From: a virus
DNA: 64,000 nt
Reading direction: 5' to 3' (one strand)
Virus record (IMG/VR): IMGVR_UViG_3300042897_000994
Location: 1-64,000 of that record
Part shown: positions 1-57,368 of the stretch, piece by piece
Position numbering within the stretch: the stretch's first letter is position 1
Layout of the letters: every line of letters starts with the position of its first letter
Program-made: the position numbers and the translations under genes
The notes under the pieces: generated by a model
What the model saw: the letters and a program-made list of their open reading frames with translations, nothing else
Told to the model about the DNA's origin: nothing
Database searches by the model: none

Positions 1-1
1 T

Positions 2-2799
2 ACTTCAGGTTCGAGCGGTTCTTCGGGAACTAGCGGCAGTTCAGGTTCAAGCGGTACCAGTGGTTCATCAGGTACTTCAGGCTCAAGTGGTTCTTCTGGA
101 ACGAGTGGTTCATCAGGTTCAAGTGGTACCTCAGGAAGTTCAGGTATATCAGGTGTAGATGGTACTGATGGAAGTTCTGGTTCTAGTGGTTCGAGCGGAA
201 CATCTGGTTCAAGTGGTTCTTCAGGAACATCTGGTTCGTCTGGAACAAGTGGTTCATCGGGAACTTCAGGTTCTTCAGGATCATCTGGAACGAGTGGTTC
301 TTCAGGTTCATCAGGAACCTCAGGCTCGTCTGGTACTTCGGGAAGTTCTGGGACATCTGGCTCATCTGGAACGAGTGGTTCTAGTGGAAGCTCGGGGACT
401 TCAGGTTCATCAGGTTCTTCAGGAACTGGAGGAACATCAGGTTCATCGGGTACTAGTGGTTCATCAGGTACTTCAGGAAGTTCTGGAACATCTGGATCGA
501 GTGGCTCGAGTGGAACAAGCGGAAGTTCAGGTTCATCAGGAACTAGTGGAAGTTCAGGATCGAGTGGAAGTTCAGGAACGAGTGGAACTAGTGGAGTTAG
601 TGGAGCATCTGGTACTAGCGGAACATCAGGTTCAAGTGGTACAAGTGGAAGCTCAGGCGCAACAGGAGCACAAGGCGTTCAGGGAGCACAGGGAGCACAA
701 GGCGTTCAAGGTGCACAAGGAAACCAAGGAGCACAGGGAGCACAAGGAAACCAAGGAGCACAGGGAGCACAGGGCGTTCAAGGAGCAACTGGAAACCAAG
801 GCGCACAAGGAGCACAAGGAGCTGCAGGATCAAGTGGATCTTCAGGAACTTCAGGTGCAACAGGAGCACAAGGCGTTCAAGGTGCACAAGGAAACCAAGG
901 AGCACAGGGTGCACAAGGAAACCAAGGAGCACAGGGAGCACAAGGAAACCAAGGAGCACAGGGAGCACAGGGTGTTCAAGGAGCAACTGGAAACCAAGGC
1001 GCACAAGGAGCACAAGGAGCTGCAGGATCAAGTGGATCAAGCGGAACGAGTGGTTCATCTGGTTCTTCAGGTTCATCAGGAACTTCGGGTTCATCTGGAA
1101 CAAGTGGTTCAAGTGGAACGAGTGGTTCAAGTGGTTCTTCTGGAACTAGTGGTTCTTCCGGTATATCGGGTGTAGATGGTACCGACGGAAGCTCTGGATC
1201 GAGTGGAAGTTCAGGAACTTCAGGAGCACAAGGTGCACAAGGTGCACAAGGTGTTCAAGGGGCACAAGGAAACCAAGGAGCGCAGGGAGCGCAAGGAAAC
1301 CAAGGAGCACAAGGAGCACAGGGTGTTCAAGGAGCAACGGGAAACCAAGGAGCACAGGGAGCACAAGGAGCTGCTGGATCAAGTGGTTCAAGCGGAACTT
1401 CAGGTGCAACAGGAAACCAGGGAGCACAAGGAGCACAAGGAGCACAAGGTGTTCAAGGAGCACAAGGAGCACAAGGTGTTCAAGGAGCACAAGGAGCACA
1501 AGGTGTTCAAGGAGCAACAGGAAACCAAGGAGCACAAGGAGCGCAAGGAAACCAAGGAGCACAAGGAGCACAGGGTGTTCAAGGAGCAACAGGAAACCAA
1601 GGAGCACAGGGAGCACAAGGAGCTGCTGGATCAAGTGGTTCAAGCGGAACTTCAGGTGCAACAGGAAACCAGGGAGCACAAGGAGCACAAGGTGTTCAAG
1701 GAGCACAAGGAGCACAAGGTGTTCAAGGAGCACAAGGAGCACAAGGTGTTCAAGGAGCAACAGGAAACCAAGGAGCACAAGGAGCACAAGGAGCTGCTGG
1801 ATCTTCGGGGTCGAGCGGAACTAGTGGTAGTTCCGGAACTAGTGGTAGTTCTGGGGTAAGTGGTATTGCTGGAACTAATGGTACATCTGGTTCTTCAGGA
1901 TCGAGCGGAACTTCAGGTGCAACAGGAAACCAAGGAGCACAAGGAGCACAGGGTGTTCAAGGAGCAACAGGAAACCAAGGGGCACAAGGAGCACAAGGAG
2001 CACAGGGTGTTCAAGGAGCAACAGGAAACCAAGGGGCACAAGGAGCACAAGGAGCGCAGGGTGTTCAAGGAGCAACAGGAAACCAAGGAGCACAAGGAGC
2101 TGCTGGATCTTCAGGATCGAGTGGAACTTCAGGTGCAACAGGAGCACAAGGTGTTCAAGGAGCAACAGGAAACCAAGGAGCACAAGGAGCACAGGGTGTT
2201 CAAGGAGCAACAGGAAACCAAGGAGCACAAGGAGCACAAGGAGCACAGGGTGTTCAAGGAGCAACAGGAAACCAAGGAGCACAAGGAGCACAAGGAGCAC
2301 AGGGTGTTCAAGGAGCAACAGGAAACCAAGGAGCACAAGGAGCTGCTGGATCTTCAGGATCGAGTGGAACTTCAGGTGCAACAGGAAACCAAGGAGCACA
2401 AGGAGCACAAGGTGTTCAAGGAGCAACAGGAAACCAAGGGGCACAAGGAGCACAGGGTGTTCAAGGAGCAACAGGAAACCAAGGAGCACAAGGTGCACAA
2501 GGTGTTCAAGGAGCAACAGGAAACCAAGGAGCACAAGGAGCACAGGGTGTTCAAGGAGCAACAGGAAACCAAGGAGCACAAGGTGCCGGAGGAGCTGCTG
2601 GATCTTCAGGATCGAGTGGAACTTCAGGTGCAACAGGAAACCAAGGAGCACAAGGAAACCAAGGAGCACAAGGAGCACAAGGAAATGCAGGAGCGCAAGG
2701 AGCACAAGGAAATGCAGGAGCACAGGGAGCACAAGGAAATGCAGGAGCACAGGGGGCACAAGGAAATGCAGGAGCACAAGGGGCACAAGGTGCAGCGGT
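2..2799 (+). repeat. 9-bp-unit tandem repeat (GSS/GTS and GAQ/GNQ/GVQ/GAT triplets) with higher-order units of about 243-252 bp
   Basis: ggagcacaa, ggaaaccaa and ggtgttcaa units. The gctgctggatc... block recurs at 1370, 1622, 2099, 2342 and 2594. Confidence 0.95.
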
Positions 2800-3277
2800 A
2801 TCAGTGTCTGGAACCAACAATACAGTAGTTAAATTTACAGGCGCAAGTACAGTAGGAAATAGCCAGATCACGGACGATGGTACTACCGTTACTATGACGG
2901 GAAGACTCGGAGTTGGTTCCGGTGTTAGTGTACCAGCAACCAATGGGGTAATTGTTGCAACAAATGATGTAATAGCTTTTGCTTCCTCCGACTCTAGGTT
3001 AAAAGATAATAAAACTATTCTGACTAACCCTCTAGATAAAGTTTCTAAACTGAATGGGTACGAGTTCGATTGGATCCCGATGCTTGGAATTCACGAAAAT
3101 GAAGGACACGATATTGGTTTAATAGCACAAGAGGTTGAAAAAGTACTGCCAGAAATTGTTAAAACTCGTGATAATGGATATAAAGCTATTAGATACGAGA
3201 AGATCGTTCCTCTACTAATTGAAGCTATTAAAGAGCTAAGCGCGGAGATAGATAAATTAAAAAGTAAAAAATCATAA
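2..3277 (+). CDS. Long tail fibre, 5'-truncated: about 930 residues of G-X-Y repeats plus a C-terminal intramolecular chaperone (peptidase S74-like) domain
   Basis: Frame 2 reads [12 protein letters not shown] from base 2 and joins the track ORF 2804..3277 in frame. The C-terminus SDSRLKDN...LNGYEFDW...[16 protein letters not shown]...[20 protein letters not shown] is the typical S74 chaperone. Confidence 0.88.
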
Positions 3278-3279
3278 TT

Positions 3280-3990
3280 ATGACAACACCAGCATCTGGA
3301 CAAATTTCAATGGACGACGTTAAAGCCGAGGTTGGTTTCGGTAATCCAGTAAAAATGTCAGATTTATACGGTTTAGCTCTTGTGCAGGGCGCGGGCGGAT
3401 TGATGTATCATAATCTAAATATGTCTCCTGGTAATGCAACAACGGCCAAGGTTGCAATCTATGATCCAAACAATGCAAATCAAAATAGGTCTTTAGATAA
3501 TTGGTACAACTACGATCAAACTCCAAATATAGTATTAAACTTTGATGTAATAAACCAGGTAGGCACAGGAGACATTATTTTTGAGCTTTATATAGTTGAT
3601 CCTGACACTGCACCCCCAACGTTTATTCAATTTAACCCCCCTTACACAGGAAACCTGGCACCTGCTGGTGGTAATGTTAGTGAAACAAATTTTGATACGG
3701 GAGTGCCCGTTGCGAGCATTGTGCAGGGTTACAAAATCGGGGTGGAAGCTGCTTATGCACCTAATCCTCCACCTCCCCCCACCCCGGCGGTTGCTATAAC
3801 AGCAGACGTATTTGGAGCTGCGAGTGATACTGATGGTGTAGGTCCTGGTACGTTTAGAAGAGGATTAGGTCCAACCTTCGACACGGACACTCCGCTGCCA
3901 CAAACAATAATTGTTGACGGAAATACCCCATCCGGGAGAACGGAAATTTTGATTAACAAGAGAACCACTTTTACGTTAACTTTTGTGTAA
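3280..3990 (+). CDS. Putative fibre-tip or adhesin protein
   Basis: Directly follows the fibre gene. The N-terminal TTPASGQISMDDVKAE motif is typical of proteins encoded after S74-bearing fibres. Beta-rich, Pro-rich C-terminal part. Confidence 0.5.
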   Translation: MTTPASGQISMDDVKAEVGFGNPVKMSDLYGLALVQGAGGLMYHNLNMSPGNATTAKVAIYDPNNANQNRSLDNWYNYDQTPNIVLNFDVINQVGTGDIIFELYIVDPDTAPPTFIQFNPPYTGNLAPAGGNVSETNFDTGVPVASIVQGYKIGVEAAYAPNPPPPPTPAVAITADVFGAASDTDGVGPGTFRRGLGPTFDTDTPLPQTIIVDGNTPSGRTEILINKRTTFTLTFV

Positions 3991-4059
3991 TTCTCCGTTT
4001 CTTCCGGTTATGTAAGTTAAAACATTAACGTACTAAAGATCTAGTTTCTTAAAAAGATG

Positions 4060-46861: not shown

Positions 46862-46893
46862 AAAAAAGAGGTCACCTATGGCCTCTTTTTTTT
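46862..46893 (+). terminator. Intrinsic terminator
   Basis: AAAAAAGAGGTCA-CCTA-TGGCCTCTTTTTTTT. Confidence 0.85.
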
Positions 46894-46946: not shown

Positions 46947-47402
46947 ATGAATTCGATGATTTTAATTGGTTCCCTGACCATCCCTTCAGTCAGCCCGCTA
47001 AACCTATTACAGGAACTATATCGGGAGAATCCCTGGAAGATGCTGGTATGTTGTCTATTTCTGAATCAGACAACCAGAAAGCAAGTCGACAAGATCCGTG
47101 AAGAATTTTTCTTAAGATATCCGTCTCCTCAAGATCTATTAAAAACTGGAGATGAAGAAATTGAAGATCTGATCAAATCTCTAGGGTTTAAAAGAGTTAG
47201 AACACAAAGACTAAAGAGATTCTCTCTAGAATTTATTTCTAAAGAATGGAAAGAACCTATTGAGTTACATGGAATAGGGAAGTATGCCCAAGAATCTTGG
47301 GAAATATTTCAGAAGCTCAACTTCAATGTTCAACCTACAGATGGAGCTTTAATCGATTATTTGAACTGGTTGGAAATATATAAAACAAATGGCAGGAATT
47401 AG
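46947..47402 (+). CDS. HhH-GPD DNA glycosylase, MBD4 catalytic-domain-like
   Basis: SPLNLLQE....PWKMLVCCLFLNQT, YPSP, LIKSLGF..VR, WKEPIELHGIGKYAQESWEIF and VQPTD (catalytic Asp) parallel the MBD4 glycosylase domain. Confidence 0.85.
   Translation: MNSMILIGSLTIPSVSPLNLLQELYRENPWKMLVCCLFLNQTTRKQVDKIREEFFLRYPSPQDLLKTGDEEIEDLIKSLGFKRVRTQRLKRFSLEFISKEWKEPIELHGIGKYAQESWEIFQKLNFNVQPTDGALIDYLNWLEIYKTNGRN
47375..47385 (+). promoter_or_regulatory. Putative late promoter inside the 3' end of the glycosylase gene
   Basis: AATATATAAAA just upstream of the ATG at 47389. Confidence 0.5.
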
Positions 47403-48540
47403 TACATTAGATTCTTTTTACAAAAAAGAGGGAAAAGAAAAACTAGATAATCTTCTCAAGAATTATGTAGTGATAGTTGAGAAGTTTTCAGCTTGTAATT
47501 TTTACATTCAAAGATCGGGTGATCAGGTTTCTTTTTATAAGAAAGATGATCAAAACATGATAGGACTAATAGATAGAACTTTTACGCAATTATACGAAAA
47601 GGCTATTTCCCATTTTTTGAAATTTGACTCTACGGACTTTCCAGAAAACTATAGATTTGGTTTTGAATATTTTCCAAATAATAAACCCGGAGAGATTGAA
47701 TATATCAGTATTCCTGAAAATTCTTTAGTTCTAACGAGAATAATGATTAAAAATTCAGCAGGTAAAACTGTAAAAGTAATTGATGATGATAAAGTTCTAG
47801 AAAACTGGGCGAGCATTTTAGACGTTTCATACAACACTCCAATTTTTTCTGGTGAGCTTTCTGATAAACAGAGAAATACTCTTGTAGAAATGGTGATTAA
47901 TTCTTCAGACAATGTAAAACGTAAATTTCTTTCTCTTTTTGAATCATATGAAGCACCAGCTCAAAGTGACACTTTCGATTCATATATCTTTAAAATTGTT
48001 TCACCGGGATCTGTTAAAAAATATAAATTTGTAGATGTTTCTGTTCCTCTCACTGAAAAAACTTCACAAGAAGCAAGACGAGGTTCTGTGGATTCCGTTT
48101 CAATTTTAATCTTAGATGTTTTAGATTTTATCGAAAGTGAAGGACTTCCTCAACTGTTATCGGGCTCAAATGACGAGGAAAAATACATTGATCTTATTTC
48201 CCAACTGTACAATAGGTACATGAGTAAATATGAGAGTGGAGTTGCTGGAATGACTTTTGATAAAAAGGACTTTGCAGATTCTCCAGAGTTTGATGTTAAT
48301 TTAAACATGATTAAAAATCCAACAACTCTACGGTTTTTGGAAAAATCGGATACCAACAAGACTATATTTAAAATTCTTCTAAACTCATTTAGAAAGTATA
48401 GAGATACAGAAATGGCAAATGATGTCTTAACCCCACAGGTATTAAAAGACTTTAATCTTAGAGTTGATGAAATCAAATCTCTAAGCAAGAAAATCTCAAA
48501 TGATATAAAGACCTTTTCTGAATTTGTAGGTGATATATAA
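47389..48540 (+). CDS. RNA-ligase-like (nucleotidyltransferase-fold) protein, possibly degenerate
   Basis: VIVEKFSACNF resembles motif I of Rnl2 (EKxxGxNF); FGFEYF resembles motif III. C-terminal IKTFSEF. Confidence 0.4.
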   Translation: MAGISTLDSFYKKEGKEKLDNLLKNYVVIVEKFSACNFYIQRSGDQVSFYKKDDQNMIGLIDRTFTQLYEKAISHFLKFDSTDFPENYRFGFEYFPNNKPGEIEYISIPENSLVLTRIMIKNSAGKTVKVIDDDKVLENWASILDVSYNTPIFSGELSDKQRNTLVEMVINSSDNVKRKFLSLFESYEAPAQSDTFDSYIFKIVSPGSVKKYKFVDVSVPLTEKTSQEARRGSVDSVSILILDVLDFIESEGLPQLLSGSNDEEKYIDLISQLYNRYMSKYESGVAGMTFDKKDFADSPEFDVNLNMIKNPTTLRFLEKSDTNKTIFKILLNSFRKYRDTEMANDVLTPQVLKDFNLRVDEIKSLSKKISNDIKTFSEFVGDI

Positions 48541-48545
48541 AAAAA
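48532..48545 (+). promoter_or_regulatory. Putative late promoter in a hairpin loop
   Basis: TTTGTAGG-[TGATATATAAAAAAAT]-CCTATAAA, just before the ATG at 48557. Confidence 0.65.
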
Positions 48546-48556
48546 TCCTATAAAAT

Positions 48557-50167
48557 ATGATAAGTAGTTTCGACGACTTTTTAGATGAAGGTAAAGTACA
48601 AGTTAAAAGACGGTATACTGAAAACTATCCGTCCAAACATGTTTATAGCGGAGCTAAAATCAGGAATGCAGTTCTTTCTGCAATTAAAGACGGCGTTGTA
48701 ACCGAAGAAGAATTTCAAAAGATTTTAGACGAAGCTGGAGCTTCTAGAATTTGGAAATACAAATACAATCATCTTTTTGACGTCAACGAAGACGGCGTAA
48801 AACTTTCATCAAAAGGTCTTAAACTCTGTCCTGTTGAAAGAATTGAAGAAGCTGATAAGATTGATGAAGTTTCAACTTCAATAGCTCAACAAAGACTAAT
48901 GGGAATGGCCTATGCCTTGAAAACGGGCGAAATGGACCCTGAGGATGCTAGTGATGAAGTAAAAGATTTAGCTAAAAACATGACAGTTAAACAGCTAAAA
49001 GATTTTGCATCTACCAAGCATAAAGGTCTTCCCTATAAAAAAGAAAATGAAAATCTTACATTACCAGATGTCCCCGGCATGGGAGCCGTTAAACTACCCG
49101 GAAACCCAGGAACATCTACACAGTTTGATAATCAAGAAACCGGATCTGGTGATATTCCTTACCCGATACCAAACAAGAAAAAAATGAAAAAAATGAAACT
49201 AATTCCAGAATCTTTTGAAGAGTTTTCAGAATCTCTAATCAATGAAGCATTTGCATCTTCTATTTTACAAAATTTAACTGCAGGAAAGTCAGATCTTAAC
49301 AAGAAATTTTTTGATGCATTGTCAAGAATGGGAATTGCTGCATCCGATATTGAAGATGATCAAATAATTGAATTGAAAACCAGCGATGCCAAAAAATATA
49401 CAAAGCAAAACCCCAATTCCATATTGATTTATTATTCTACTACAGAAAAGCCAAATCCGTTTGCTGGTAGTGGAGCATGGAGTAGTTCTAAAACTATCCC
49501 AGGTGATATGCCTTTAGCCGTTGTAAAAGATAAGATATACATGGGATTAAAATATGACAGATACTCTAGAGGAAGTAAACCAGAGTATTCTTTAGTTCAG
49601 AATCCAGGCGGCACTATAGGAATCGATAAAGCTGGAGGAACTTATGGTTCGGGATTAACGACATTAGATAAAATAGCAGCGGTGTCTGATATTGTGTATG
49701 TAATTGATCCTACTGTAATACCTTCTTCTTCTGCAAAAAGAGCAGAAAGAAAACAGTCTAGATCCGGAGCCACTGCATATGTTAGTGATAAAGATTTTAA
49801 AGCTCAAAATAAAGCAAGATACGATGTTATTCTAGCAGACAGAGCTTCTAAATTGCCACTAGATAAAGAAGTTGGTGAAGCTATCGATATTTTGGCTTCT
49901 CACATCAAAGATGCTATCTCTTCAGGAGCTAAAACTAGATATGGGGAAATCCTTATCGGTACAGATCCAAAAGGAAGAGAAATTAAAATGAGTGATGCCA
50001 GTAGCATCATGAGAAATCTTTTAGATGATTTTGGAAGATATGTAGATTATACAAATAAATCTGCAGAAGAAGGTAGTAGCAGATACTATGAAGCAGAATC
50101 TAAGCAATATGCTAAATCAGTTTCGGATAGACTTCGAAAAATTAAGAATAAAGACTATGCTTGGTAA
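48557..50167 (+). CDS. Putative internal head polyprotein containing a DUF3008-like module
   Basis: Starts MISSFDDFLDE. SIAQQRLMGMA...LKDFASTKHKGLP is DUF3008-like. Internal MKKMKLIPESFEEFSESLINE. Confidence 0.6.
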   Translation: MISSFDDFLDEGKVQVKRRYTENYPSKHVYSGAKIRNAVLSAIKDGVVTEEEFQKILDEAGASRIWKYKYNHLFDVNEDGVKLSSKGLKLCPVERIEEADKIDEVSTSIAQQRLMGMAYALKTGEMDPEDASDEVKDLAKNMTVKQLKDFASTKHKGLPYKKENENLTLPDVPGMGAVKLPGNPGTSTQFDNQETGSGDIPYPIPNKKKMKKMKLIPESFEEFSESLINEAFASSILQNLTAGKSDLNKKFFDALSRMGIAASDIEDDQIIELKTSDAKKYTKQNPNSILIYYSTTEKPNPFAGSGAWSSSKTIPGDMPLAVVKDKIYMGLKYDRYSRGSKPEYSLVQNPGGTIGIDKAGGTYGSGLTTLDKIAAVSDIVYVIDPTVIPSSSAKRAERKQSRSGATAYVSDKDFKAQNKARYDVILADRASKLPLDKEVGEAIDILASHIKDAISSGAKTRYGEILIGTDPKGREIKMSDASSIMRNLLDDFGRYVDYTNKSAEEGSSRYYEAESKQYAKSVSDRLRKIKNKDYAW

Positions 50168-50204
50168 CTTTATGCCTGTGTAGCATCATACTCTAAATTT
50201 CTTT

Positions 50205-50232
50205 AAGCTCGGTTTAGGCCGAGCTTTTTTTT
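50205..50232 (+). terminator. Intrinsic terminator
   Basis: AAGCTCGGT-TTAG-GCCGAGCTTTTTTTT. Confidence 0.88.
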
Positions 50233-50252
50233 GTTAATTTCATAATAAGGTT

Positions 50253-50278
50253 AAACAATTGCAAGAGTTGTCATATAA
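50253..50278 (+). promoter_or_regulatory. Putative early/middle promoter AAAC-N17-TATAA
   Basis: AAAC at 50253-50256 and TATAA at 50274-50278. Confidence 0.6.
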
Positions 50279-50283
50279 ATTTT

Positions 50284-50763
50284 ATGGCAAATCAAGATAA
50301 TACATGTTCGGATCTTCACATCGAAGATTTTTGGGAAAGAAGAACGCAGTTTACAACCGATACCCTTGGTGATATTTTAAATTTACAGGCAGAAACTCAA
50401 AAAAATATTTATGAATATGATTTTGAGAATATGTCTCTTCGCGACATTATGAATTTCTGGCACATGAATACTCATGCTATGATCGATGAAATTCATGAAG
50501 CTACAGATGCTTTAGGTGGAATTAGAGACGGTTCTGGAAATGCGATTTGGAAAAGATGGAAAAAAGACTATAAAAAATTCGAATCTTTGAAGTTTTCCGA
50601 TTTAAGCGAAAATGATCAACTGGAATGTAAATTTGAAATTGTGGACATGCTTCACTTTTTTATGAATTATGCGGCTTCTATTGGAATGACTTCTCAAGAA
50701 ATGTACAATATGTATATGAGTAAGAATAAAGAGAATAGAGAAAGACAAAAGCGAGGATATTAA
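50284..50763 (+). CDS. dCTP/dUTP pyrophosphatase, T4 gp56-like (all-alpha)
   Basis: IDEIHEATDALG, AIWKRWKK, DQLECKFEIVDMLHF and KNKENRERQKRGY are all collinear with T4 gp56. Confidence 0.88.
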   Translation: MANQDNTCSDLHIEDFWERRTQFTTDTLGDILNLQAETQKNIYEYDFENMSLRDIMNFWHMNTHAMIDEIHEATDALGGIRDGSGNAIWKRWKKDYKKFESLKFSDLSENDQLECKFEIVDMLHFFMNYAASIGMTSQEMYNMYMSKNKENRERQKRGY

Positions 50764-52169
50764 TGTTATTAGACATAGAACAGCGTGGTAAAGAACTTAT
50801 CGTTTCTTATTACAACAAAGAAGGAAACACTGCCTTTAAAAAATATAAGCTACCTTCCGTTTCTAACTGGGCCGTATGTAATCCAAAAGACAAAGGAAAG
50901 TCCGAAGAATTTAAAAACTGGGATGGCCGACCAGTAAGACTGGCACCTAGTAAAGCTTATGATAAATATTCTCTAATTCAATTTTTAGAAAATTTACCAG
51001 AAGAAGAATCATTTGAAATTTTTGAATATTGTCTTCCAAAGATTTATTTTGTAGATATTGAGGTTGAAGTTACCGATTCTTTTCCAGAACCAGAAAGAGC
51101 AGAAAATCCAGTTACTACAATAGCAATTGTTACACCGACTGGACAGTCTATTGTTTTAGCAACAAAAGATTTAAAAAGAGAAAATCAAATAGAAATACAA
51201 GAATCTATTAATGACTATTTCTTAGAAGAAGATGTTTCTTTTAACTTTGTTTATAAAGTTTTTTCATCTGAATATGATATGCTTTATACGTTTTTCCACA
51301 CCTTTGTGAAAAAATTTCCAATGATGACAGGTTGGAACTTTATTAATTTTGACTGGAAATATCTCGTAAATAGAGCAATGAAACTTTCTATTGATGTTTC
51401 AATCGCCTCTCCGACCGGTGCAGTTTGGGGAAAAGAACAAATTCCATTTCATGTAGGTGTGATGGACTATTTGGAACTATACCGAAAATGGGATAGAAGC
51501 GTAGATATTAAAGAAAACTTTACTTTAGATTCAGTTGCCGAAGTTGTTACTGGATATAAGAAAATTAAATACAATGGATCTCTACAAGATCTCTATGAAC
51601 AAGACTATCAGAAATATGTTTATTATAACGTAGTCGATACTTGTCTGGTATTTCTCATACACAGAAAAATTAAAACGATGGAGATTGCTTTAACTATTGC
51701 AAATCTTTGTCGAATTTCTATTTATAAAGCAGCATCACCCGTTGCGGTAACCGAGTCTCTCTTGTGCAGGAAATTCTTGGATAAAGGTCAAGTGATGGCC
51801 AAAGACTGGGAAGCCTCACCAAATAAAGTAAATGGACAATATGCCGGAGCTTATGTAAAACAACCAGAAGTCGGAATGCACAGAGGAGTAGCTTGCTTTG
51901 ACTTTGCTTCTCTATATCCATCAATTATGAGACAGTTGAATGTTAGTCCCGATTCGTTCATTAGAAAGGTAGATCCTAACAATGCAGATGCGGAAAAACG
52001 TGATGATAGAATAGTATCTGTGACTGGCGCAGTATATCGAAAAGATGAATCCATACTCAAGAATATTCTCACAGATCTCTATAATCAGAGAAGAACTTAC
52101 AAGAAAAAGTATTTTGAGTTAGAAGTTAAAGCAGATGAGCTTAGGAAAAAAATTAAGGAAATGAGTTAG
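50763..52169 (+). CDS. Family B DNA polymerase, N-terminal subunit (exonuclease, motif A, first finger helix)
   Basis: Exo motifs DIEV, GWNFINFD and YNVVD; YAGAYVKQP; FDFASLYPSIM. Ends after LYNQRRTYKKK. Confidence 0.92.
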   Translation: MLLDIEQRGKELIVSYYNKEGNTAFKKYKLPSVSNWAVCNPKDKGKSEEFKNWDGRPVRLAPSKAYDKYSLIQFLENLPEEESFEIFEYCLPKIYFVDIEVEVTDSFPEPERAENPVTTIAIVTPTGQSIVLATKDLKRENQIEIQESINDYFLEEDVSFNFVYKVFSSEYDMLYTFFHTFVKKFPMMTGWNFINFDWKYLVNRAMKLSIDVSIASPTGAVWGKEQIPFHVGVMDYLELYRKWDRSVDIKENFTLDSVAEVVTGYKKIKYNGSLQDLYEQDYQKYVYYNVVDTCLVFLIHRKIKTMEIALTIANLCRISIYKAASPVAVTESLLCRKFLDKGQVMAKDWEASPNKVNGQYAGAYVKQPEVGMHRGVACFDFASLYPSIMRQLNVSPDSFIRKVDPNNADAEKRDDRIVSVTGAVYRKDESILKNILTDLYNQRRTYKKKYFELEVKADELRKKIKEMS

Positions 52170-55479: not shown

Positions 55480-56232
55480 ATGGAAATCAAAATTAAGAAA
55501 ATAGACACTGCAGAATTTCAGTTGTTTGTTAAGAAATTATTGTCTATCGACAAGTTCATTTTTATGAAAGTTGGAGAAAAGGTTACATCTTCTTCTGTCT
55601 TTCTTCCACAACGGGATGCCGTAAAATTAGTAAACGTTAAGACTTCTGATCTTTTTGATTCTGAAGCTTGGCCTGATCAACCGGTTAAAGTTTCTTTCTT
55701 TAATGGAAATAAGATTATAGAAGCTCTTTCTCATTTCGGTGGAGAATGTTCAGGAAAAATTATCTATGATAAAGTAGGGAATGATTTTGTTGCAAGTGAC
55801 TTTATTATTGAAAATGATAATCTAAAGATCAAACTCTTTTGCGCGGATCCAAGTTTAAACTTTATGGATATGAAAGAAGATGAAACCAAGAGAGCATTTA
55901 CAACTACAGATTCAAAATTCTCTTTTGAACTTTTAACAATCCATGCAGACAAGATGAAGTCTCTTTTCTCTCTCGATAAAGAAAAAGAAACTTATAAGTT
56001 ATATGCAGATTCTAGAGGTGTAAGTATTAAAGGTGAAAATTATGATGCCATCATTACTCACTCTGTTGAAATGGATTCTGAAAATGAAGAAGTTACAATT
56101 TATAAAAAGTATAGTCCTCTTCTAGATAAAGAAAACTACAAAGTAGTAGTATGCGGAAATAAAATTGTATTTAAGTCTCTAGATACTGCAACATATTTAA
56201 CTGTAGCTGTAGCTATCATAGACGAAGAATAA
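55480..56232 (+). CDS. Putative sliding clamp (gp45-like)
   Basis: 250 aa with a two-domain alpha/beta pattern, a central CADPS linker and a terminal YLTVAV strand. Coupled to the polymerase subunit. Confidence 0.55.
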   Translation: MEIKIKKIDTAEFQLFVKKLLSIDKFIFMKVGEKVTSSSVFLPQRDAVKLVNVKTSDLFDSEAWPDQPVKVSFFNGNKIIEALSHFGGECSGKIIYDKVGNDFVASDFIIENDNLKIKLFCADPSLNFMDMKEDETKRAFTTTDSKFSFELLTIHADKMKSLFSLDKEKETYKLYADSRGVSIKGENYDAIITHSVEMDSENEEVTIYKKYSPLLDKENYKVVVCGNKIVFKSLDTATYLTVAVAIIDEE

Positions 56233-57368
56233 TGAAAGAAGATATAGAAGATCTAAAAAAACAACTTAAAGAAATAGAACAAGAGTCTCAGAAGTATTAC
56301 AACTACGAACAAGCTGTTAAATTAACTCTAAACTCAATTTACGGCGCATTCGGTAATGAGTGGTTCTATTTCTTTAATGTAGACATTGCAGAAACAATTA
56401 CCCTGCAAGGTCAAGACGCAATCTTTTATACCGAAAAACTGATCAATAAGTACTTTCATGATTTTTGGCACAAAGACACGGAAGTACATAAGGAGCTTGG
56501 AATTGAGATTAAAGGCGAAGTAAAGAAGCCTATTGTAATCTACATCGACACAGACTCATGTTATCTTAGATTCGAAGAAGTTCTTGAAAAATGTACTTGG
56601 GATAAATCAGAAAAAGAATTTATTCTCAAGATTTATAATATCAGACTAAAGTCATACATTGAAAATGTTCTTAGTTCCTATGCAAAAAAGAACAACTCTG
56701 ATAACTTTCTTTCATTCGAACTTGAATCGATAGCCAAAAATGCAATCTGGCTAGCAAAAAAGAAATACATGCAAAACATTGTATGGAAAGATCCAGATAT
56801 TCATTTCGAGGCCTTGAGTAAAATAAGTACAAAAGGATTTGAAATCATACAATCAAGTACTCCGCTTTTCGCTCGAAACAAGCTAAAGGAAATCATCAAA
56901 TATATCTTTTCAGTAGATAAAGTAAATTATCCAGATTTGATTGCTCTTTTGAAAAAAATTAAAAGAGAATTTAAACTTGCAAATATCGAGCATATATGTT
57001 TCAATCTAAGAATTGGAAACTATCAGAAATATATTGTTAACGACTATTCTGAATTTGAAATAGCTTCAGGTTGTCCAATGCACGTTAGGGCATCTGGGTA
57101 TTATAATTATTTACTAAATAACAGTACGCACAAAGGAAAATATAAACTTCTTGCCAATTCAGAAAAGGTAAAAATGTATATAAGCAAAGATTCTGCATGT
57201 GACGTATTTGCATTTCCTCCTGGGAATCACCCTTATGAATTTGCACCTTCAGTAGATTATGATGCACAATTCGAAAAAGCAATAATTGATCCTATGAATC
57301 GAGTTATTGCGGCAATGAGCCTTCCTATACTAGATAGAAATTTAATTTATACAACAACGCTCTTTTAA
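56232..57368 (+). CDS. Family B DNA polymerase, C-terminal subunit (second finger helix, motifs B and C, thumb)
   Basis: KLTLNSIYGAFG, AETITLQGQ, YIDTDS, AKKKY and KGFEIIQSSTP. Confidence 0.92.
   Translation: MKEDIEDLKKQLKEIEQESQKYYNYEQAVKLTLNSIYGAFGNEWFYFFNVDIAETITLQGQDAIFYTEKLINKYFHDFWHKDTEVHKELGIEIKGEVKKPIVIYIDTDSCYLRFEEVLEKCTWDKSEKEFILKIYNIRLKSYIENVLSSYAKKNNSDNFLSFELESIAKNAIWLAKKKYMQNIVWKDPDIHFEALSKISTKGFEIIQSSTPLFARNKLKEIIKYIFSVDKVNYPDLIALLKKIKREFKLANIEHICFNLRIGNYQKYIVNDYSEFEIASGCPMHVRASGYYNYLLNNSTHKGKYKLLANSEKVKMYISKDSACDVFAFPPGNHPYEFAPSVDYDAQFEKAIIDPMNRVIAAMSLPILDRNLIYTTTLF

Follow-up and report, generated by a model that had tools for sequence, protein, structure and literature searches.

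Bacteriophages that replace all of their cytosine, such as T4 and Xp12, are classic models and have been sources of epigenetics reagents. In T4, the replacement pathway comprises gp56, gp42, the deoxynucleoside monophosphate (dNMP) kinase gp1 and the alpha- and beta-glucosyltransferases. How such phages cope with the deamination of 5-substituted cytosine, which is faster than that of cytosine and invisible to uracil-DNA glycosylase (UDG), is not addressed in the literature we searched. Outside these phages, systems that make 5-methylcytosine (5mC), such as those of Mig.MthI and Vsr-Dcm, supply their own T:G repair enzyme, and the mammalian glycosylase MBD4 (MED1) acts at CpG sites on T, U or 5-hydroxymethyluracil (5hmU) opposite G. 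Here we describe a stand-alone MBD4-type glycosylase gene and a neighboring gp56-like gene in the first 64 kb (the window) of the 160,937-bp IMG/VR virus record IMGVR_UViG_3300042897_000994 (G000:C1; CheckV completeness ~50%). We propose, with a probability that we place at roughly 0.6, that this glycosylase removes deaminated modified cytosine opposite G in a genome built with C5-modified cytosine by the logic of T4.

The product of the glycosylase gene has the hallmarks of the MBD4 catalytic domain in both sequence and predicted structure. The open reading frame (ORF) holds the motifs WKEPIELHGIGKY and PTD and scores 40.3 bits against the Pfam HhH-GPD model, for which the cut-off is 26.2; an alternative in-frame ATG at position 46956 is the start used in the database cluster representative (148 aa). 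In a phmmer search of PDB, the top 15 matches are all MBD4 glycosylase-domain sequences (E 3e-27 to 7e-26), collinear along residues 13-142, and they are followed by EndoIII (8e-10) and MIG (4e-8). Identity to the mammalian MBD4/MED1 glycosylase domain (PDB 1NGN, 3IHO, 4E9E-H, 4EVV, 4EW0, 6VJW) reaches 36-39% over ~130 residues. An AlphaFold2 (AF2) model built from an alignment of 36 homologs has a predicted local distance difference test (pLDDT) score of 94.9, and the top 16 Foldseek matches to this model are all MBD4 domains, with template-modeling (TM) scores of 0.80-0.89 and root-mean-square deviations of 1.2-2.1 A; the first match outside MBD4 is MIG (1kea, TM 0.59), which is thus next in line by sequence and structure alike. 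The only cysteines are the adjacent C35 and C36, and the chain ends 19 residues past the catalytic Asp; therefore, the protein lacks an Fe-S loop. On both counts the first-pass annotation, which had proposed from sequence alone a 151-aa domain collinear with the MBD4 catalytic domain and devoid of the FeS cluster of EndoIII and MutY, proved correct. Two other assignments were rejected. Identification as endonuclease III (Nth) fails on the TIGR01083 score (45.1 bits against a cut-off of 211.7) and on the missing Fe-S cysteines, and a PADLOC match to a 'Type II nicking endonuclease' reflects the common HhH core and no defense system. No methyl-CpG-binding domain is present in the 151 residues, HhH-GPD being the sole Pfam match, and the viral homologs are 111-154 aa long. 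As judged from sequence and model, the protein belongs to the MBD4 catalytic-domain family, with an altered DNA-intercalating loop, and is not an ortholog of full-length MBD4.

Structural studies on MBD4 have defined a pocket formed by residues 447-449 and 560-562, Leu466, Gly471 and Tyr540, in which Gln449 is essential (Q449A is inactive) and Asp560 is catalytic; Arg468 occupies the gap left by the flipped base and, together with Leu506, reads the opposite guanine through main-chain carbonyls (PMC3479182). The hydroxymethyl group of 5hmU contacts no protein atom in this pocket, so C5 substituents are tolerated there (PMC3479182). To assign equivalent positions we used the phmmer alignment to MBD4, with human positions counted from the C-terminus of the human protein. 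By this alignment, Q22 of the phage protein corresponds to Q449, L39/N40 to L466/N467, Q41 to R468, R44 to G471, L79/G80 to L506/G507, Y113 (in LHGIGKY) to Y540, and D132 (in PTD) to D560. D132 lies ~20 residues after the HhH hairpin, as expected of the catalytic Asp. Among the 36 viral homologs, Y113 and D132 are invariant, Q22 is nearly so, and L39 and L79 are invariant or nearly invariant. Hence, the two enzymes have in common the fold, the LHGIGKY hairpin, the catalytic Asp, the equivalents of Gln449, Tyr540 and Leu506, and the lack of an Fe-S cluster, and the phage enzyme is predicted to act like MBD4, as a monofunctional glycosylase on T, U or 5hmU opposite G. Unlike MBD4, it has neither a methyl-CpG-binding domain nor a linker, and Arg468 and Gly471 are replaced by Gln and Arg. 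A further difference is that, whereas MBD4 serves CpG sites, the phage is predicted to bear modified cytosine genome-wide.

The second component of the locus, the gp56-like protein, is 34% identical to T4 gp56 over 142 residues by BLASTP (E 1e-25), scores 70.6 bits against PHROG 173, and matches 1438 phage records, mainly from T4-like phages, where it is annotated as dCTPase; Pfam dUTPase_2 gives 20.7 bits across the C-terminal 34 residues (cut-off 22.9). The TAA stop of its gene and the ATG of the N-terminal half of the family-B DNA polymerase (PolB) share one base (TAATG), and the gp56-like gene is found directly upstream of this half in 74 of 80 related IMG/VR loci. From its context, namely the gp42-like enzyme encoded in the same record, the position ahead of PolB across the lineage and the occurrence of a gp42-like TS about once per genome equivalent in the larger records of that lineage, the enzyme is predicted to hydrolyze deoxycytidine triphosphate (dCTP) and dCDP in addition to deoxyuridine triphosphate (dUTP). 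The gp56-like gene is 2.9 kb from the glycosylase gene, in agreement with the earlier description of a gp56-like enzyme about 3 kb away and translationally coupled to the polymerase.

The remainder of the putative pathway is encoded elsewhere in the same record, which contains two thymidylate synthase (TS)-family genes. One is a canonical thyA; the other, 54 kb from the glycosylase gene, encodes a homolog that in PDB matches the CMP hydroxymethylase MilA (1e-24) and the T4 deoxycytidine monophosphate (dCMP) hydroxymethylase (2e-21) ahead of true TS (~1e-10), and that scores 80.8 bits with Pfam TS. Published work on TS homologs indicates that N177D confers dCMP specificity, that an acidic residue at L143 accompanies a non-methyl product, and that D169N marks the 5-hydroxy-dCMP synthases, with Asn in every one tested (PMC13326640, Lee et al. 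2026). The homolog in this phage carries L143D, the catalytic Cys, D169 and N177D (D/C/D/D, or D/D/D without the Cys), together with DFxCT and MRSND motifs, a pattern that is that of T4 gp42. The start of its gene overlaps a dNMP-/thymidylate-kinase-like gene, an arrangement indicative of translational coupling, with a guanylate kinase gene just upstream. Downstream lie genes for a 384-aa protein, for a GT47-like protein of 370 aa (a weak match) and for UDP-galactopyranose mutase (GLF, 174 bits). The 384-aa ORF has no similarity to T4 beta-glucosyltransferase and no match in Pfam, PHROG or NCBIfam, and is a candidate glycosyltransferase-like gene by position only.

Because the gp56 homolog and the TS homolog with the gp42 signature, together with the kinase and sugar genes, make up the full T4 logic, this phage very probably carries C5-modified cytosine in its genome, and the cytosine-replacement pathway is in itself a new member of a textbook kind. 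As in T4, a gp56 homolog, a TS with gp42 residues and an overlapping kinase are present, and glycosyltransferase-like genes directly follow the TS homolog, much as b-gt lies beside gene 42. In contrast to T4, expression of the gp56-like gene is tied to a split PolB, the candidate transferases lack sequence similarity to T4 beta-glucosyltransferase, and the UDP-galactopyranose mutase, thioesterase and methyltransferase genes suggest a different sugar. The gene string around the TS homolog may be an operon that places a furanosyl or some other unusual sugar on hydroxymethylcytosine. The modified base is most likely 5-hydroxymethylcytosine (5hmC) bearing a sugar, rather than 5mC, which refines the initial proposal of either base: of the two types of gene sought elsewhere in the record, a dCMP methylase or hydroxymethylase was found, in the form of the gp42-like homolog, and no C5-methyltransferase was detected in the 161 kb, an absence that carries little weight in a genome ~50% complete. 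It is conceivable that the base is instead 5mC, as in Xp12, or 5-hydroxycytosine, with the glycosylase handling T:G or 5-hydroxyuracil:G. This possibility draws on the occurrence of the glycosylase family with all three TS signatures (N/D/D in Xp12, L/D/D in G039, and E/N/D in G042 and G069; see below) and on the fact that predicting the product from three residues extrapolates the published work (PMC13326640). We regard it as improbable, given that the D/D/D residues and the DFxCT and MRSND motifs are identical to those of T4 gp42, that Asp169 is kept where all tested 5-hydroxy-dCMP synthases have Asn, and that the glycosyltransferase-like and GLF genes downstream require a hydroxyl acceptor.

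Relatives of the glycosylase in cultured phages point in the same direction. Full-length homologs were found in 14 of 50,697 isolate records, 13 from Xp12-group siphoviruses, among them Xp12, AXL1 and Donnerlittchen, and one from the TIM5-like cyanophage S-TIM54. In Xp12, 5mC replaces all cytosine, as confirmed by liquid chromatography-mass spectrometry (PMC7653180). The gene order in Xp12 and Donnerlittchen is glycosylase, NTP-pyrophosphohydrolase, and then TS homolog, dCMP deaminase and dihydrofolate reductase (DHFR), with the first two genes overlapping in Xp12. AXL1 has the same order, and its glycosylase was termed an 'ENDO3c' protein, found elsewhere only in Xp12 and with a doubted active site (PMC9206674); the homologs in these phages are likewise listed as hypothetical or as 'ENDO3c' of uncertain activity (PMC9206674). 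The proteins of Xp12 (QNN97216.1), AXL1 (gp65) and Donnerlittchen (USN14433.1) belong to the same viral family as the enzyme described here, with 36-38% identity (E 1e-15 to 3e-16). The TS homologs of Xp12 (signature N/D/D) and Donnerlittchen carry Asp177, as does the sole TS homolog of S-TIM54. Thus, in Xp12-type phages the glycosylase gene is located inside the modification operon and the base is 5mC, whereas in the present phage, whose predicted base is 5hmC, 3 kb separate it from the gp56-like gene.

The family is essentially confined to viruses: it is encoded by at least 567 IMG/VR contigs, compared with 11 contigs of metagenome-assembled genomes (MAGs) among 185,579 species genomes, and at least two of these 11 look like phage fragments, one of them in the Xp12-type gene order. 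The latter, the 1619-bp contig SCSV01000215.1 from a Salinibacterium MAG, encodes the glycosylase, an Xp12-type NTP-pyrophosphohydrolase and a TS homolog in the order of Xp12, and its most likely origin is a phage whose fragment ended up in a bacterial bin.

We surveyed TS homologs in the best 79 of the at least 567 IMG/VR glycosylase records. Asp177 homologs are present in 19 of these 79, whose summed CheckV completeness is 18.8 genome equivalents, and in all seven records that are at least 73% complete. These seven span three chemical subtypes: D/D/D in G026, G032, G044 and G074, L/D/D (the dCMP-methylase type) in G039, and E/N/D (the 5-hydroxy type) in G042 and G069. Within 10 kb of the glycosylase gene, there are 13 loci with an Asp177 TS compared with one with a canonical TS. 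In G039, a 373,759-bp record scored as 100% complete, a single TS-family gene is present, which matches canonical TS at 331 bits and combines a retained Leu143 with Asp177; as the naturally occurring equivalent of the engineered N229D dCMP methylase, it predicts that G039 is a 5mC jumbo phage that also carries an MBD4-type glycosylase. In G042, G043 and G069, the E/N/D homolog lies 5-7 kb from the glycosylase gene, and each of these TS matches contains one in-frame stop (TAA in G042 and G043, TGA in G069). The Pfam families Thymidylat_synt, dCMP_cyt_deam_1 and dUTPase_2 are listed as enriched in cytosine-modified contigs in the accessible part of the MetaGPA study (PMC8670742); HhH-GPD does not appear in that part, which bears on the glycosylase in neither direction.

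A simpler account is that the glycosylase is a general base-excision enzyme, acting on uracil or oxidized pyrimidines, and that it co-occurs with cytosine-modifying genes as part of the gene content of large lytic phages. Its membership of the broad HhH-GPD superfamily is in keeping with this idea, as are the many IMG/VR glycosylase records that are small fragments with no TS homolog seen and the failure of the gene to track the pathway inside its own lineage, described below. Set against these are the operon linkage to 5mC genes in Xp12-type siphoviruses, the 13:1 ratio by which Asp177 outnumbers canonical TS in the flanks, the presence of an Asp177 TS homolog in seven of seven near-complete records across three TS subtypes, the distance of the protein from the EndoIII family model, and a set of pocket residues that are those reading T, U or 5hmU in MBD4. 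On balance, we judge a general role to be unlikely, even if it is the strongest of the competing accounts.

Several observations nevertheless weigh against a dedicated role in the repair of deaminated modified cytosine. The control from the lineage of this phage, drawn from IMG/VR relatives of the PolB N-terminal half, comprises 80 loci, seven of which have the glycosylase nearby, and 24 larger relatives that have the gp56-PolB pair but no glycosylase anywhere. We expected glycosylase-less relatives to lack the gp42-like TS, and this expectation was ruled out: the 24 hold nine D/D/D TS genes in 8.95 genome equivalents, the same rate as in the carriers. Since relatives devoid of the glycosylase keep the gp42-like TS at the same rate, the glycosylase is an accessory gene that the pathway does not require, and its association with the pathway holds only across lineages and not within its own. 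T4 itself replaces cytosine and has no MBD4-like glycosylase. The only handle on the background frequency of Asp177 is that 1291 of the 50,697 isolate records give any match to the TS homolog of this phage. At the level of the enzyme, the gap-filling Arg468 position is occupied by Gln41 here, and by Gln, Cys or Leu across the viral family, while the Gly471 position is a nearly invariant Arg (Arg44) in the 36 homologs; because both residues are replaced, DNA handling, and possibly specificity, may differ from those of MBD4. One conjecture is that the gap-filling Arg has shifted along the loop by three residues, from the 468 to the 471 site. A sugar on the hydroxymethyl group would make the deaminated base bulky, and its fit in the pocket would then be in question. 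Finally, no AP endonuclease (Xth, Nfo) or dCMP deaminase was detected in the 161 kb of this ~50% complete record. Taken together, the distribution suggests a gene restricted to cytosine-replacing phages, many of which, T4 among them, lack it.

Two further observations concern the lineage control. In G103, one of the glycosylase-less relatives, a truncated second TS-like frame (minus strand, 0-582; H/C/A/D) accompanies the D/D/D TS. GC content at third codon positions (GC3) of the PolB N-terminal half, considered as a sign of reduced C-to-T decay, was 0.32 in the seven loci with the glycosylase and 0.23 in the 24 without; we set this comparison aside and do not count it, as the seven carriers form ~4 clusters, host composition is uncontrolled, and the present phage is itself low (0.25).

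Under the reading that we favor, the gp56-like enzyme, co-translated with the polymerase, would convert dCTP (and dUTP) to the monophosphate; the gp42-like TS homolog would convert dCMP to 5-hydroxymethyl-dCMP, whose phosphorylation would be begun by the product of the overlapping dNMP-kinase-like gene; and, after incorporation, the glycosyltransferase-like proteins, supplied by UDP-galactopyranose mutase, would probably add a sugar. Since every cytosine would be modified, hydrolytic deamination would place 5hmU, or a glycoside of it, across from G, mainly over the long period that the virion spends outside the cell. UDG ignores 5-substituted uracil. After infection, the 151-aa enzyme would act as a monofunctional glycosylase that flips out the deaminated pyrimidine, with Gln22, Tyr113 and a main-chain NH reading the flipped base in the manner of MBD4, the backbone of the loops that hold Q41 and L79 checking the opposite G, and Asp132 cleaving the glycosidic bond. 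Repair of the resulting abasic site would then fall to an AP endonuclease of the host, to the polymerase of the phage and to a ligase, for which the product of the overlapping Rnl2-like gene is a possible candidate. We infer this repair role, and with it the chemical identity of the base, the dCTP specificity, the substrate range and the steps that follow base excision, from the homologies, conserved residues, fold, gene arrangement and co-occurrence described here. In its logic, the proposed scheme resembles those of Mig.MthI and Vsr-Dcm, in which the modifying system brings along its own repair enzyme; it differs from them in that MIG (Mig.MthI, PDB 1KEA) has a 4Fe-4S cluster, is ~220 aa long and serves the site-specific methylation of a restriction-modification system, and in that Vsr is an unrelated endonuclease, while in the phage the modification would be genome-wide and made on nucleotides.

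The same chemistry could also be directed at enzymatic damage, in which case the glycosylase would be a counter-defense against host cytosine deaminases that act on DNA or nucleotides, and not a means of repairing spontaneous decay. The accessible parts of two reports describe deoxycytidine deaminases as strongly enriched in cytosine-modified metaviromes (PMC8670742; bioRxiv 10.1101/2024.12.05.627091), and the position of the gene among replication and recombination genes (UvsW, gp32, polymerase) would suit such a function. However, this uncultured phage has no known host deaminase to counter, and the locus bears no sign of defense, the sole PADLOC match being to a generic HhH nicking-enzyme model. 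We consider counter-defense a rather remote prospect next to the repair of spontaneous deamination, from which it does not differ in what it predicts for the sequence.

The coordinates of the features discussed are collected in Table 1. The glycosylase unit and the gp56-PolB unit are separate and adjacent, each behind a terminator-like hairpin. Within the glycosylase unit, the 383-aa ORF begins before the glycosylase gene ends, with an overlap of 14 nt. The model of the 383-aa protein (pLDDT 71.5) has T4 RNA ligase 2 as its best Foldseek match (E 4e-8, at low TM), and its atlas lead is RNA_ligase (0.84); searches of Pfam, PHROG and NCBIfam gave no match. The Glu-Lys pair of motif I (E31-K32) does not vary among six homologs, and the motif reads KFSA in the phage and the canonical KMDG/KLNG in two homologs (L082, L070). 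A gene of this type directly follows the glycosylase in loci L003, L023-L025 and L027. As a lead only, the predicted Rnl2-like protein could seal the nicks of base-excision repair. A very different use of the glycosylase can also be envisaged, in which it generates abasic sites or nicks to initiate recombination-dependent replication, or attacks host DNA. Its location among recombination and replication genes, with a ligase-like gene next in line, fits that notion. We give it very little credence, though: intact host DNA seldom contains the T or U mispaired with G that MBD4-type enzymes require, the protein carries no nuclease or targeting domain, and its catalytic architecture matches that of conventional repair glycosylases.

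Table 1. Features of the glycosylase locus (window coordinates) and of the predicted cytosine-modification pathway (coordinates of record G000:C1)
Feature	Coordinates	Strand	Details and basis
Intrinsic-terminator-like hairpin and T-run closing the upstream leucine-rich-repeat (LRR) gene	46862..46891	+	13-bp stem, 4-nt loop
Stand-alone MBD4-type HhH-GPD DNA glycosylase, 151 aa	46947..47402	+	Pfam, phmmer, AF2/Foldseek, alignment
383-aa ORF, predicted Rnl2-like nucleotidyltransferase (ligase) fold	47389..48540	+	Foldseek, motif I
536-aa protein, last gene in glycosylase unit	48557..50167	+	DUF3008 segment at residues 107-162
Terminator-like hairpin and T-run between glycosylase unit and gp56-like/polymerase unit	50205..50226	+	
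T4 gp56-like all-alpha NTP pyrophosphohydrolase (predicted dCTPase/dUTPase), 159 aa	50284..50763	+	BLASTP, PHROG
PolB N-terminal half (exonuclease and beginning of polymerase domain)	50763..52169	+	
PolB C-terminal half	56232..57368	+	
Gene string: guanylate kinase, 128-aa orphan, dNMP-kinase-like, gp42-like TS, 384-aa orphan, GT47-like, 4HBT thioesterase, GLF, methyltransferase	G000:C1:99258-106060		
gp42-like TS homolog (predicted dCMP hydroxymethylase), 290 aa, outside window	G000:C1:100711-101583		PDB matches, signature residues
Canonical ThyA, second TS-family gene of the record	G000:C1:140475-141773		Asn at E. coli position 177

Gene content suggests that the phage is a distant T4-like myovirus. 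Every gene in the window is on the + strand, GC content is ~33%, and the gene set includes UvsW, gp32, UvsX, a gp41-type helicase, gp46/47, a class I ribonucleotide reductase, a gp15-like protein and the split PolB, whose halves are separated by nrdB, nrdA and a 250-aa orphan ORF. The first part of the window stands apart: positions 1-4000 have a GC content of 46-52% and strong G and A skew, compared with ~33% in the rest, and contain several long overlapping frames on both strands, including a 1091-aa frame already open at position 1, which suggests a repetitive structural gene of odd composition.

The viral family is also related to eukaryotic MBD4. A profile of the 36 viral homologs matches eukaryotic MBD-plus-glycosylase proteins at ~1e-43 and 512 cluster representatives at E <=1e-30, many of which are long with a C-terminal glycosylase domain; several of these long matches bear an MBD domain or are named eukaryotic proteins (sea urchin, Acrasis), and the full HMM search recovers hundreds of long eukaryotic forms. 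In the full tree, 107 of 109 long or eukaryotic forms group in one clade, and in a reduced tree 34 of 35 are found in a clade with a support of 95 that also contains 11 short forms. This long/eukaryotic clade is nested inside short viral forms under either a midpoint or a bacterial EndoIII root. In the EndoIII-rooted tree, one intended outgroup fell within the ingroup and Xp12 joined the long branch. The topology points to a viral origin of the eukaryotic MBD4 domain, and to transfer in that direction, only tentatively, because the alignment has 138 columns and the branch leading to the outgroup is very long, at 5 changes per column. The description of the enzyme as 'eukaryote-like' in the first-pass annotation thus holds insofar as homology to MBD4 is concerned; the data are better described as one family common to phages and eukaryotes, with the eukaryotic clade inside the viral forms. 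A wider and distinctly tentative proposal, which we would ourselves bet against, is that the viral MBD4-type family protects fully C5-substituted genomes (5mC, 5hmC, 5-hydroxycytosine and glycosides) from deamination, and that the eukaryotic MBD4 domain descends from it, having later been joined to a methyl-CpG-binding domain.

We found no paper that recognizes a viral MBD4-type family or that ties MBD4-like enzymes to modified-cytosine phages, in a search outside of which most subscription journals lay. If the role proposed here is true, it would explain the 'ENDO3c' or hypothetical gene of the Xp12 operon and would provide a simple genomic marker of cytosine-modified phage DNA for metagenomes. 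Enzymology and sequencing chemistry would gain a set of small MBD4-type enzymes (~130-150 aa) that vary naturally at the gap-filling position, and the family would inform the question of where animals and plants acquired their MBD4 repair domain.

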